From: a virus
Virus genome (UHGV): UHGV-1739656
Length of the DNA: 13,338 nucleotides
Reading direction: 5' to 3' (one strand)
In this document: positions 2,543 to 4,003 of the stretch, in pieces
Position numbering within the stretch: position 1 is the first letter of the stretch
Layout: every line of letters begins with the position of its first letter
The notes under the pieces: generated by a model
The model's database searches: none
Told to the model about the DNA's origin: nothing
Seen by the model: only the letters and a program-made list of their open reading frames with translations
Program-made: the position numbers and the translations under genes

Positions 2543-3550
2543 ATGACAACTTTTACCGACAAAGAACTGATTAAAGAAATCAGAGAGCGAATCGGCAGCC
2601 TGGACGTGCGAGACAATATTGAGCGCCTGGCTTATGAAATTGCTCTGGCATCGCTGGAAGCAGAGCCTGTTCTGTATCAGTCCTGCACTCGCCCCACCTG
2701 GAATAGCGGTGTTCCGTGGACGGAATGGAAAGAACGTAGTCGTGAGTGCTACGAAGACGATTTGCGTTTTACAGACACGCCTGACCATGCCGGTTGGATA
2801 TACAAATGTCGAAAACTATATACCACTCCGCCAGCGCCGATAGCGTTAGAGGCCATTGAAAACGCAATTGAATACATTCGTAGTATCGCTTTTCACATCG
2901 ATGAAGACGATTACCACGGCAAACATATTGCGTATTTCATGCGACAAGCATTGGCCTGGCTGGAAGGGCATTCATGCAGCGACGACAGACTGGGTAAAGC
3001 CGACAATCAACCAGTACGCGGCAACCAGGCTGCCGAATCCAATCGCGGTAATGAGTGGACCGGCAATCCTGATATTGATAACGCAATCATCATGCTCGAC
3101 CGCATAGATACGGCGGAAAGTTACGATGATGACCGTATTGAGGCTGTTAAGGCTGTTTTGCGTAGACTGGCAGGCAACTATCCGGATATTCCGGATGGTT
3201 TATCCACGGTATGCGCTGAGGCTTATCAGGTTGTAGGAGTTATGGCAGATGCGCTTGGTGTATTCGGTGATGCAGCAGTACAGAAAGTTCTGGATAACCT
3301 GTCACAGCAAAAACTTGTTCACAGAGATGTGCTGCCGTTCTCGCTTCCGGTGACTCCGGATGGTTGGATAAGCTGTAGTGAGCGAATGCCCCCTCAAGAT
3401 GATTGGATTTTAATTTATTCAAAGCACGGCGAGTATATGGCAGGACAGGTACAAGGGGAATACGTGGAGTTGAGCGACGGCACTTTATCGTGGTTAGGGA
3501 ACGCCTTGTTCTGGATGCCGCTACCAGAACCGCCGCAGGAGGTGAAGTGA
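2543..3550 (+). CDS. DUF551 domain-containing phage protein
   Basis: 335-aa ORF with RBS AAGGA. The C-terminal region (WISCSERMPP...WILIYSKHGEY...WMPLPEPP) matches the recalled DUF551 signature ending in W-M-P-L-P-E-P-P. Confidence 0.55.
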   Translation: MTTFTDKELIKEIRERIGSLDVRDNIERLAYEIALASLEAEPVLYQSCTRPTWNSGVPWTEWKERSRECYEDDLRFTDTPDHAGWIYKCRKLYTTPPAPIALEAIENAIEYIRSIAFHIDEDDYHGKHIAYFMRQALAWLEGHSCSDDRLGKADNQPVRGNQAAESNRGNEWTGNPDIDNAIIMLDRIDTAESYDDDRIEAVKAVLRRLAGNYPDIPDGLSTVCAEAYQVVGVMADALGVFGDAAVQKVLDNLSQQKLVHRDVLPFSLPVTPDGWISCSERMPPQDDWILIYSKHGEYMAGQVQGEYVELSDGTLSWLGNALFWMPLPEPPQEVK

Positions 3551-3672
3551 TGAACAAGTGCAACGCTCTGCTTTATGCCATGGTGATTGGTTTCGGCCTG
3601 GCTGCTGGTATCCGGGTTTATATTACCTGGGAGTCATTAATCAATCTGGCGTGGAGTGCGATTCGTGGCTAA
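3550..3672 (+). CDS. Small hydrophobic peptide (40 aa), putative single-pass membrane protein
   Basis: ATG 3550 overlaps the DUF551 stop (TGATG) and follows a strong SD (CAGGAGGTGA). Sequence MNKCNALLYAMVIGFGLAAGIRVYITWESLINLAWSAIRG has a 20-residue hydrophobic core typical of a transmembrane helix. Confidence 0.4.
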   Translation: MNKCNALLYAMVIGFGLAAGIRVYITWESLINLAWSAIRG

Positions 3673-4003
3673 ATCCCCCGCAGAACGCAAAGCCGCGCAG
3701 CGCGCTCGGCAGTCCGCCGCCGGTGAGCGCAAAATTGAACTGGTGCTGGATAAGCAGGAGCAGGAAATGCTGGCGCGGAACTGCGCCGCCCGGCGCCCTG
3801 GTCGCGATCCCTATGAAATGGCCGAGTACATCGCGTTACTGATCCGCCAGGATGATGCACGCGTGCGCGGGCGTATAAAATCGATCAGCAGAAAATGTTG
3901 CGGTAAGTGCGGCGAGAGAGTTCCAGTTAATTCATGCCCGTGTAATGGTGACTCGCAATGCTGGGTGACTAAAGGCTGGCATGAAACGAAATTAATAGTG
4001 TGA
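3656..4003 (+). CDS. Ribbon-helix-helix-like DNA-binding protein with C-terminal Cys cluster (possibly YlcI/YnfO-like)
   Basis: GTG start at 3656 or 3665. A basic arm (SPAERKAAQRARQ) is followed by a beta-strand-like KIELVLD and two predicted helices, an RHH-like pattern. The C-terminus has CCGKCGERVPVNSCPCNGDSQCW, a metal-binding-like cluster. Sits immediately upstream of the terminase small subunit. Confidence 0.45.
   Translation: MRFVAKSPAERKAAQRARQSAAGERKIELVLDKQEQEMLARNCAARRPGRDPYEMAEYIALLIRQDDARVRGRIKSISRKCCGKCGERVPVNSCPCNGDSQCWVTKGWHETKLIV

Follow-up and report, generated by a model that had tools for sequence, protein, structure and literature searches.

Organization of the Locus

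The window, i.e., the whole stretch of 13,338 nt that was analyzed, is an E. coli prophage of the epsilon15/phiV10-like (Uetakevirus) type. The locus described here consists of two small prophage genes, pep40 and p112, which are both real, mutually unrelated and close the rightward early operon (Table 1). They are preceded by a DUF551-domain gene, different segments of which are matched by several PHROGs in a profile search and which reads as a mosaic early gene of the ea/nin type. The coupling of this gene to pep40 was found as it had been described in the original prediction: its TGA (3548–3550) overlaps the ATG of pep40 (3550–3552) in a TGATG, and the Shine-Dalgarno sequence of pep40 is strong. 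The 3′ end of pep40 in turn overlaps p112 by 8 nt (GTGGCTAA), counted from the GTG at position 3665. This GTG (112 aa, beginning with M-A-K-S) is the conserved start and not the GTG at 3656 (115 aa); homologues carry an ATG at the equivalent place.

The stop codon of p112 lies inside a palindrome (site A), as originally noted, but the palindrome comprises 12 bp and does not extend over 3999–4012, since the T and the G at these ends are not complementary. Immediately to the right of site A, relatives contain a whole small "moron" ORF or other genes. The gap between site A and terS occurs among them in variants of 328, 431–435, and 486–493 nt, holding an ORF of about 65 aa, other ORFs or an ORF with a LexA-box-like motif (TACTGT-N8-ACAGTA) ahead of it.

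The hairpin downstream of the moron remnant closes the early-right operon. It is followed by two direct repeats, which jointly form an inverted repeat, ATTACC-N5-GGTAA, just upstream of terS. This element is kept in diverged relatives and may be a late promoter, an operator or a packaging signal. A terS start at the ATG in position 4122 or 4125 agrees with the annotation of TL-2011b and Tyrion, whereas the TTG at 4044 chosen by PGAP would span the terminator.

Table 1. Features of the pep40-p112 locus and of the second palindrome copy in the window.
Feature	Position	Strand	Remarks
DUF551-domain gene, 335 aa	2543–3550	+	PF04448, E 4e-10, residues 274–332
Shine-Dalgarno sequence AGGAGG of pep40	3537–3542	+	7 nt 5′ of the ATG, read from the sequence
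pep40, 40 aa, MNKCNALLYAMVIGFGLAAGIRVYITWESLINLAWSAIRG	3550–3672	+	phrog_5525 (function unknown)
p112, 112 aa, GTG start	3665–4003	+	phrog_536; homologues phiV10 gp55, epsilon15 gp49, N15 gp46
Site A, 12-bp palindrome GTGACATGTCAC	4000–4011	.	holds the p112 stop TGA (4001–4003); candidate p112 binding site
Moron ORF remnant, 3′ end only (...DEFDG-stop)	4025–4050	+	from comparison with relatives
Intrinsic-terminator-like hairpin TGCCGCCA-ACTA-TGGCGGCG with T-rich tail	4052–4080	+	kept in most relatives
Two direct repeats ACTATTACCAC, 18 nt apart	4086–4114	.	from comparison with relatives
Terminase small subunit gene (terS)	4125–4718	+	PF03592, E 1.4e-29
Site B, second exact copy of GTGACATGTCAC	6265–6276	.	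syntenic in most relatives and in phiV10, Tyrion, and SPN1S

The Conserved Small Gene pep40

The pep40 product matches phrog_5525 over its full length (E 7.6e-30, positions 1–40 of 40), and the gene was annotated by PGAP in E. coli MS20645. Its relatives form 39 clusters of 63–100% identity, mostly 40–41 aa long, from Escherichia, Klebsiella, and Citrobacter. Variable sites fall on the first, second and third codon positions in numbers of 19, 9, and 33, and the dN/dS ratio is 0.18–0.39. This pattern indicates a real conserved gene under purifying selection, which is kept in related phages and is no filler.

The hydropathy profile fits the single transmembrane helix that had been predicted for the peptide, with a Kyte-Doolittle maximum (19 residues, hydropathy alone) of 1.85 at residues 7–25. 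With its 40 residues, its strong Shine-Dalgarno sequence and a single hydrophobic helix ahead of an amphipathic tail, pep40 resembles small single-helix phage membrane peptides like type I toxins, holin modulators, and exclusion peptides. In contrast, its sequence is related to no named family, and it lies in the early ea/nin-type region, outside the lysis cassette. The suggested toxin, exclusion or holin-like function found no support, nor did a role in defence, as PADLOC and NCBIfam scans of pep40 were without match and Pfam returned a single sub-threshold match to DUF2109 (E 0.03, 14.8 bits against a cut-off of 23.1 bits). The gene enlarges the set of conserved small putative membrane proteins among the under-annotated micro-genes of phages.

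The p112 Family

The p112 protein matches the HMM of phrog_536 with an E of 6.3e-54, its residues 1–111 corresponding to positions 2–114 of the 115 in the profile; TL-2011b gp20 is a further member. Relatives were found in 786 close clusters, and 150 representatives at the 50% level reach down to about 30% identity. It is a conserved core gene. In 85 of 87 loci it is followed directly by terS, and the remaining two loci are truncated. Hundreds of full-length homologues show that p112 is conserved as a protein and not a filler. They also rule out a frameshift artefact as the origin of its cysteine-rich tail, an objection that the original prediction had named beforehand.

The family phrog_536 is labelled "transcriptional regulator," and p112 occupies the same position upstream of terS as its counterparts in phiV10, Tyrion, and SPN1S. 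A literature search found no experimental basis for this label and no functional study of these proteins, a search on N15 gp46 gave nothing relevant, and the publication on phage ZX5 deals with the repressor and antirepressor and not with the p112 homologue. The gene called "NinX" beside this homologue in ZX5 is a DUF2591-type upstream neighbour. NinX of P22 was considered as a relative of p112 and rejected, since despite the equal length (112 aa) the BLASTP match covers 9 residues alone.

The predicted layout of p112 comprises an N-terminal basic helix and a ribbon-helix-helix (RHH)-like strand-helix-helix (residues ~5–74), a Cys4 mini-domain and a short C-terminal helix; in the structure model, one helix lies ahead of the RHH. 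The RHH-like N-terminus is a prediction, and the curated Pfam RHH models (RHH_1, RHH_5, RepB-RCR_reg, and similar ones) are not matched by the window protein. Neither Pfam at E <= 1 nor NCBIfam gave any match for p112, and among 50 relatives each RHH family of Pfam is matched by one or two, with E values of 0.013–0.07. A PDB sequence search with p112 alone as query was without match, as was PADLOC. Foldseek searches of PDB and BFVD returned no whole-protein match; BFVD yielded just 46 aa of this very protein, under a name that says nothing about function.

The cysteine cluster reads exactly CC-x2-C-x8-C-x-C-x5-C (...KCCGKCGERVPVNSCPCNGDSQCW...), as had been described, but family-wide conservation is limited to four of these six residues, C79, C82, C91, and C99. 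The first C of the "CC" is variable, and C93 as well as H106 belong to the enteric branch alone. Across the family the spacing is C-x2-C-x8-10-C-x7-C, with C-x2-C-x8-C-x7-C in the window protein. Among 50 diverse members, C79, C82, and C99 show no or almost no variation, C91 is aligned by position, and R8 and R13 of the basic helix are nearly invariant.

Independence of pep40 and p112

Only 22 of the 87 p112 loci (~25%) contain pep40. Klebsiella lambdoid prophages (L004–L007) carry the gene at the end of their ea region but have no p112, and more distant relatives without p112 are found in P1-like phages. More than 40 different genes were identified as upstream neighbours of p112, joined to it at a sharp junction with the same overlap. 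At two loci (L165 and L124), a DUF551-type 3′ end, closely similar but non-identical to that of the window, abuts p112 directly, with the same Shine-Dalgarno/TGATG junction and without pep40 in between. Because of the lone pep40 copies, the 22 of 87 loci and the more than 40 other neighbours, the obligate co-occurrence of a type II toxin-antitoxin pair is absent. By this comparison of loci, pep40 and p112 are independent mosaic units, and the small regulatory or toxic module that had been proposed found no support. Instead, pep40 would be an optional accessory gene ("mini-moron"), its translation being coupled to whichever gene precedes it.

A Palindrome Linked to p112

Site B is located 75 nt past the stop of terL (6190); a weak hairpin precedes it, and the 3′ end of a minus-strand gene (6281–6622) follows after 4 nt. 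By chance, about 8e-4 second exact copies of the 12-mer are expected in 13 kb. Nearly all Uetakevirus-type loci have site A at the p112 stop, including those with unrelated flanks and insertions. A third position (site C), seen in phiV10, Tyrion, and SPN1S, follows the last structural gene. Tyrion and SPN1S contain exact copies at three syntenic operon ends each, and phiV10 has two exact copies and one with a single mismatch, the latter at the p112 stop. Terminator hairpins adjoin sites B and C in phiV10 and SPN1S and site C in Tyrion; most sites lie within 0–45 nt of intrinsic terminators, and every site adjoins a variable moron region. The records of phiV10 and Tyrion terminate inside the palindrome.

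Homologues of p112 with 35–45% identity, from N15, Yersinia P2-like, Vibrio, and Pantoea phages, carry the palindrome in the form GTGAC-NN-GTCAC on or beside their stop codon. The sequences are GTGACTGGTCAC at N15 gene 46, with two further copies in this phage, GTGACGCGTCAC at gp11 of the Yersinia P2-like phage, GTGACCTGTCAC in Pantoea AH07, and GTGACAGGTCAC in Vibrio PE002A, where it is present twice with identical flanks. Distant homologues on IMG/VR contigs also have a site on or beside the stop. Vibrio K308 contains three intergenic 12-bp sites, plus one true 13-bp site of the matS consensus. Some sites are intragenic, as in repA of N15 and in the antiterminator gene of AH07. In about 10 of 74 further enteric loci, the p112 homologue has no palindrome at its stop and does not adjoin terS; sites are found there 5–6 kb off, in the late region.

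Counted over 1.76 Mb of p112-positive DNA, GTGAC-NN-GTCAC occurs 259 times against 1.7 expected, where the sites are not independent, as the loci were chosen for carrying p112 and mostly represent closely related prophages. No site was found in 131 kb of p112-negative DNA, a small control set including lambda and P22. All 259 sites have a 2-bp spacer. The centre dinucleotide differs between phages of one host (AT in phiV10, TG in N15) and is uniform within the locus in 85 of 93 multi-site loci, most of which are closely related prophages with an AT centre. The suspected link between p112 and the palindrome is strengthened by this enrichment and by the stop-codon position kept in distant homologues. 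The palindrome is clearly functional, and it is probably the binding site of p112. The palindrome string itself had no match in a literature search.

Several other explanations of the palindrome were considered and rejected. As an RNA hairpin it would have a 5-bp stem and a 4-nt loop only, the region has a fold z-score of -1.7, and an Rfam scan at the gathering threshold returned a tRNA alone, outside the palindrome region. The stem is invariant without covariation, which argues for recognition of the DNA by a protein. Three copies per genome and the presence in cos phages (N15, P2-like) speak against a packaging cut at a cos or pac end. For a promoter with GTGACA as the -35 hexamer, a plausible -10 exists at some variants of site A only and at none of the sites B and C. 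A host site of the CRP/FNR type does not fit either, as the half-sites of these regulators are spaced differently.

Proposed Function of p112 and Its Sites

The joint explanation that fits best, and towards which our judgement tips slightly, is that p112 is a sequence-specific regulator binding the palindromes and that pep40 is a separate optional accessory gene. A p112 dimer would read the 12-bp GTGAC-NN-GTCAC by its N-terminal basic helix and RHH ribbon. The Cys4 domain, presumably zinc-binding, and the terminal helix could provide stability, higher-order assembly or contact to a partner. The cognate sites would travel with the p112 gene, one of them overlapping its own stop codon. The other copies, past terL and past the last structural gene, would flag where transcription units end, in most cases next to intrinsic terminators and to variable moron insertion points. 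The most likely role would be the control of transcription at operon boundaries, by roadblock or insulation or by modulation of read-through, or the bridging of sites. The residues of the RHH β-strand vary among homologues while the GTGAC half-sites do not, so that recognition would rest on the conserved basic helix. Recognition through such a helix would be unusual for RHH proteins.

Phage and plasmid regulators of the RHH class (CopG/Arc/MetJ superfamily) share with p112 the small size, a basic N-terminal segment followed by a (here predicted) strand-helix-helix, and the tie to a short palindrome. In contrast to them, p112 is matched by no Pfam RHH model, its Cys4 C-terminal domain has no counterpart among solved RHH structures in the Foldseek searches, and its putative sites lie at its own stop codon and at operon ends instead of its own promoter.

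A parallel among known sites is matS, whose consensus is GTGACRNYGTCAC (PMC6907758). The GTGAC/GTCAC half-sites are identical, and in both systems several copies are dispersed over the replicon. However, the palindrome has 12 bp with a 2-bp spacer whereas matS has 13 bp, and the p112 system is phage-encoded with sites at gene and operon ends. No sequence homology is detectable between p112 and MatP: an hhalign comparison of E. coli MatP with the p112 family gave a probability of 0.2%, by which homology was rejected, and MatP is not among the matches listed by the PDB profile search. The N-terminal four-helix bundle of MatP is missing in p112, and the Cys4 domain replaces its plain coiled-coil tail.

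As a bolder and only tentative proposal, phrog_536 and GTGAC-NN-GTCAC might constitute a hitherto unrecognised protein/site system, widespread in temperate phages of Enterobacterales, Vibrionales and relatives. It would extend over phages with podo-, sipho-, or myovirus morphology, linear plasmid prophages of the N15 type, and P2-like phages. An RHH-zinc protein, its gene lying beside one of its own sites, would then mark the ends of transcription units and either govern termination or read-through or bridge the sites as MatP does with matS.

Alternative Readings

The palindromes could instead be read by another factor, e.g., a host MatP-like protein, a nuclease or a recombinase, or they could be junctions of module and moron exchange, with the position at the p112 stop as a recombination boundary. 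We regard this as unlikely, although the matS half-sites, the true matS-consensus site in K308, the variable moron regions bordering every site and the invariance of the half-sites beside varying RHH strand residues are consistent with it. To our knowledge, the hosts of all examined p112 phages belong to gamma-proteobacterial groups with MatP, which would fit as well. Against a host MatP-like reader, the spacer is 2 bp and not 3 at every counted site, and p112-negative lambdoid DNA is free of sites. The centre, which differs between phages of the same host and is mostly uniform per locus, argues for a phage-encoded reader. Furthermore, the site stays with the p112 gene across five unrelated phage architectures, which also speaks against an exchange junction.

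RinA/ArpU-type activators of Gram-positive phages are encoded immediately upstream of terS. By its similar position, p112 could be the late-gene activator of epsilon15-like phages, binding the palindrome or ATTACC-N5-GGTAA and switching on terS-terL and the structural operons. The terminator between p112 and terS, the conserved repeat element before terS, the lack of a Q- or Ogr-like gene in the annotation of phiV10, Tyrion, and SPN1S, and the likeness of GTGACA in the palindrome to a -35 hexamer would agree with this role. It nevertheless has a rather small chance of being the right one, because homologues coexist with established late regulators, namely the Q-like gp40 of N15, a regulator in Ogr position of the Yersinia P2-like phage and the antiterminator of AH07, and lie far from terS in all three. 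Sites B and C are located at operon ends before terminators or convergent genes and not upstream of promoters, and morons of 200–500 bp separate site A from terS with the site retained. The Pfam models Ogr_Delta and Phage_antiter_Q do not match p112.

A further possibility is that the C-terminal half of p112 is a zinc finger of the DksA/TraR type, which contacts RNA polymerase while the protein is tethered to DNA near terminators and alters termination or pausing. The DksA/TraR C4 proteins, including TraR-like ones of the lambda type, share with p112 a helix followed by C-x2-C-G-x2-(I/L)-P and a later cysteine. The three best PDB sequence matches of the family profile are in YbiI and TraR (E 0.06–0.15), and an hhalign comparison with a TraR sequence consistent with the alignment of the PDB search gave the family a probability of 67.6% over p112 residues 46–106. 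The proximity of most sites to intrinsic terminators would suit this role. These scores are below significance, the Foldseek structure searches give no support, and the second cysteine pair is placed differently (C-x2-C-x8-C-x7-C against C-x2-C-x17-C-x2-C). In p112, the place of the helix inserted into the secondary channel of RNA polymerase would be taken by the second RHH helix (helix B), which has no acidic tip; p112 lacks the acidic-tip coiled coil, and its finger would be fused to a DNA-binding-type RHH. This reading is very improbable.

Finally, pep40 and the RHH-Cys protein could make up a module of two genes, either a membrane toxin with its RHH antitoxin or regulator or an exclusion peptide with a regulator. 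Their common orientation with an overlap and the type I toxin-like helix of pep40 would suggest such a module, but it is barely credible. The missing co-occurrence and the exchangeable upstream genes already largely refute it, PADLOC gave no match, and neither a putative toxin placed first nor a conserved Cys4 domain is usual for RHH antitoxins.

Significance and Occurrence in E. coli

These results bear on the control of late genes and operon boundaries in epsilon15/phiV10-type phages, a group with serotype-converting members and with prophages that are frequent in pathogenic E. coli. With the palindrome, phrog_536, so far labelled by annotation alone, gains a candidate site, defined genomic targets and conservation across unrelated phages including the model phage N15. 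If p112 binds these sites, it would offer a handle on how mosaic phage genomes shield their transcription units and moron insertions from one another or couple them, and would represent a naturally occurring RHH domain joined to a Cys4 module and recognizing matS-like DNA. Of 5426 complete E. coli genomes, 1814 match at least part of the 751-bp stretch compared, much of this being the flanking DUF551 end, and 216 genomes match at least 80% of it.

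Genomic setting

The window belongs to an E. coli prophage of the epsilon15/phiV10 (Uetakevirus) type. Its bases 3400-4150 show 98.5% identity to E. coli MS20645 and 98.4% to partial phage records. Of 5426 complete E. coli genomes, 1814 match this stretch at least in part and 216 over at least 80% of it. Mosaic ea/nin-type early genes are followed by the DUF551 gene, pep40 (a 40-aa ORF), p112 (coding for a 112-aa RHH-like protein with a cysteine cluster), terS, terL, a minus-strand moron, i.e., a variable inserted accessory gene, and the portal and head genes. The DUF551 protein is a mosaic, in which separate segments match phrog_60, 5117, 924, 21459, and 660; the DUF551 domain itself comprises just the last ~60 residues. 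A tRNA gene separates the terL-proximal moron from the portal region; its counterpart in the near-identical prophage of E. coli MS20645 is labelled tRNA-Arg.

Features of the p112 region and their coordinates in the window
Feature	Coordinates	Strand	Remark
DUF551 gene	2543-3550		335 aa
TGATG overlap	3548-3552		DUF551 stop and pep40 start
pep40	3550-3672		40 aa
Near-invariant pep40 3′ end	3625-3665		last ~45 nt (WESLINLAWS...)
p112	3665-4003		GTG start, 112 aa
p112 5′ junction	3665-3672		first three codons, ATG/GTG-GCT-AAA
Palindrome site A	4000-4011		GTGACATGTCAC, on p112 stop
Insert remnant	4025-4050		only last codons of a ~65-aa ORF
Terminator hairpin	4052-4071
Direct repeats	4086-4114		two copies of ACTATTACCAC, 18 nt apart
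terS start	4122/4125 (probable)		ATG
terL	4715-6190
Palindrome site B	6265-6276		GTGACATGTCAC, just past terL
tRNA gene	6817-6890	minus	Rfam 73.3 bits
One-mismatch palindrome	9267-9278		GTGACATGGCAC, inside gene 9215-9511

A palindrome linked to p112

The most interesting element of this region is the palindrome GTGAC-NN-GTCAC, a conserved multi-copy site linked to p112 and the candidate target of an uncharacterised phage protein family. The original prediction had placed the p112 stop codon inside a palindrome at 3999-4012; the TGA (4001-4003) does lie within it, but the perfect palindrome is a 12-mer confined to 4000-4011. Two exact copies are present in the window, and the one-mismatch copy is also found in phiV10 (at 5306). 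For one exact copy per 40-kb genome, the chance expectation is about 0.002.

Site A is kept at the p112 stop in almost all related loci, irrespective of the flanks, and site B 3′ of terL in most of them. In phiV10, Tyrion, and SPN1S, whose genomes are complete, three syntenic copies are present, the third (site C) following the final gene of the structural operon. Tyrion and SPN1S have exact copies at each of these positions, and site A of phiV10 has one mismatch (GTGACATGTTAC) and spans the record ends. A strong intrinsic terminator is immediately adjacent to site C in each of these genomes, site B lies 3′ of a hairpin in phiV10 and SPN1S, and SPN1S carries an extra one-mismatch copy on the Rz stop codon. 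The deposited linear records of phiV10 and Tyrion end within palindrome A, after GTGA and at its centre, respectively, which reflects either the annotator's choice or physical genome ends.

In very different phages with p112 homologues of only 35-45% identity, the palindrome was found on or beside the stop codon with another central dinucleotide. This applies to gene 46 of N15 (GTGACTGGTCAC), gp11 directly after gpA in a Yersinia P2-like phage (GTGACGCGTCAC), the early-left operon of Pantoea AH07 (GTGACCTGTCAC), and Vibrio PE002A (GTGACAGGTCAC), where a second copy with identical flanks is located 5′ of parA. Further copies in N15 are intergenic, 5′ of the terminator preceding the antirepressor genes, and inside repA. 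The same arrangement is seen in IMG/VR contigs from the P0184 and P0246 branches and in locus L095, which has two CA-centred copies. In Vibrio phage K308 the stop codon of the p112 homologue is without palindrome, and three 12-bp sites are intergenic. One 13-bp site of this phage (GTGACACCGTCAC, at 19491) agrees with the matS consensus of the host and overlaps the end of a gene. The BPP-1-like podovirus contigs have p112 behind a 695-aa cytosine methylase, with no palindrome at the p112 stop; in these contigs the palindrome lies ahead of terminators and overlaps the TGA of a late gene of 282 aa.

The p112-positive DNA (169 loci, 1.76 Mb) contains 259 sites versus 1.7 expected, and 85 of 93 multi-site loci have the same centre throughout, both counts coming from largely related loci whose events are not independent. 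Independent support for the link between gene and site consists of five or six unrelated phage architectures. The 8 loci of p112-negative DNA (131 kb, with lambda and P22 among them) contained no palindrome site. The two GTGAC-N-GTCAC sites of lambda (9747 and 19010) are 11 bp long, and a 12-bp site is absent from it.

The p112 protein family

The cysteine pattern originally described for this ORF is present in the sequence, whereas its start had to be corrected to the GTG at 3665, as annotated by PGAP; homologues begin with M-A/P-K-S at the equivalent codon. P112 is a full-length member of phrog_536 (E 6.3e-54), with homologues such as phiV10 gp55, epsilon15 gp49, and TL-2011b gp20, for which RefSeq gives the label 'transcriptional regulator'. 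There are 786 close clusters, nearly all of 112 aa, and 150 representatives at the 50% level, reaching down to about 30% full-length identity, so that the Cys-rich tail is no frameshift artefact.

Among 28 close homologues, C40, C79, C82, C91, C99, and H106 are fully conserved, C93 almost so, and C78 varies. In 50 diverse members C79 and C82 are invariant, and C99, a cysteine at the position of C91, R8, R13, E54, L59, P87, and G95 are constant, resulting in the Cys4 motif C-x2-C-x8-10-C-x7-C. The AlphaFold2 model (pLDDT 91.9) consists of helix 5-18, an extended stretch (19-29), helices 30-42 and 52-74, a small Cys-knot region, and helix 100-108. Foldseek returned 5ytp (TTHA0139, which we take to belong to the RHH family) as sole match, with probability 0.87, and nothing that matched the whole architecture. 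The initial description as an RHH-like protein with a Cys cluster is essentially right, and p112 is, as predicted from sequence and model, a conserved two-part protein.

No Pfam or NCBIfam model matched p112. Among PDB sequences the family profile matched best to YbiI and TraR (E 0.06-0.15), and hhalign of the family against a TraR sequence gave 67.6% probability over residues 46-106. This profile similarity suggests a distant link with zinc fingers of the DksA/TraR type, but the cysteines are spaced differently and no backing comes from structure searches.

Possible function of p112 and its sites

The site is physically tied to one gene across unrelated genomes, its half-sites are invariant, and its centre varies among phages that share a host but is mostly constant per locus; this combination points to a phage-encoded, sequence-specific reader. 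As p112 is the sole candidate travelling with the palindrome, we propose that a p112 dimer binds GTGAC-NN-GTCAC. Most sites are located where transcription units end, 0-45 nt from intrinsic terminators, and border moron insertions. These positions suggest a regulatory role at operon ends, where binding would control termination or read-through, insulate units, or bridge sites. DNA binding, zinc binding, and the regulatory outcome are put forward as proposals.

The palindrome has the same half-sites as matS (GTGACRNYGTCAC; PMC6907758) with a spacer one base shorter. MatP is the top structural match to p112, yet hhalign finds no homology and the MatP four-helix bundle is absent from p112; this is resemblance, not membership. 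N15, AH07, and the P2-like phage have p112 homologues alongside Q-like or Ogr-position regulators, which weakens the idea of p112 as 'the' late activator. A role of the palindrome in RNA is unlikely, with its weak hairpin, invariant stem sequence, and no Rfam match. The 12-mer had no match in the papers searched, and the consulted papers on Uetakevirus phages and N15 do not address the p112-type gene.

Neighbourhood of p112

The terS gene lies 3′ of p112 in 85 of 87 loci, the two exceptions being cut by the record end, and the gap between both genes falls into classes of about 121, 307, or 410-470 nt. The longer gaps contain ORFs inserted directly right of palindrome A. In relatives (including L017, L025, L043, L046, L060, and L084) this moron insertion point is occupied by an ORF of ~65 aa, by other ORFs, or by one that follows a TTGACT promoter with a LexA-box-like motif, TACTGT-N8-ACAGTA. 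On the 5′ side more than 40 unrelated sequences meet p112 at a sharp mosaic junction, the usual upstream stop being inside ATG-GCT-AA; many of these genes end in a TAA embedded in the first codons, or in TGATG/TAATG. The junction suggests a recombination joint keeping translational coupling.

The direct repeats form an inverted repeat, ATTACC-N5-GGTAA, just 5′ of terS, and a related element is retained in relatives with diverged surroundings. They could be a late promoter, an operator, a packaging signal, or a translational signal of terS. A PGAP-style terS start at TTG 4044 would put the terminator hairpin inside the coding region; the ATG start, as in TL-2011b and Tyrion, is more plausible.

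The pep40 gene

All sequence features described for pep40 were recovered, namely the coupling of its start to the DUF551 stop, a strong SD (AGGAGG, 7 nt 5′ of the ATG), and hydrophobicity (Kyte-Doolittle maximum 1.85, residues 7-25). The gene is conserved in related phages, with a full-length match to phrog_5525 (E 7.6e-30) and 39 protein clusters from Escherichia, Klebsiella, and Citrobacter (63-100% identity, nearly all 40-41 aa). In 11 distinct DNA versions, variable sites are distributed 19/9/33 over the codon positions, and dN/dS is 0.18-0.39 versus diverged copies.

Pep40 is a real gene, but no half of a pair. The proposed regulatory or toxic module of pep40 and p112 is unsupported, since pep40 lies 5′ of p112 in just 22 of 87 p112-bearing loci and also occurs without p112. 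In Klebsiella lambdoid prophages lacking p112 it follows DUF551 or another gene with the same one-base overlap and precedes a divergent gene and a holE-like gene. P1-like phages have relatives of about 50% identity amid hypothetical genes. In two loci (L165 and L124) p112 directly adjoins a DUF551-type 3′ end of close similarity, with the same SD/TGATG junction and no pep40, so that pep40 represents an insertion. PADLOC and NCBIfam scans of pep40 gave no match, and the sole Pfam match was DUF2109 (E 0.03, under the gathering score); at most, pep40 can be called a small accessory protein of the inner membrane. The 3′ end of pep40 is almost invariant in DNA, even versus copies with many synonymous changes in the 5′ half and in the Klebsiella prophages without p112, and could be a recent recombination tract or an embedded signal.
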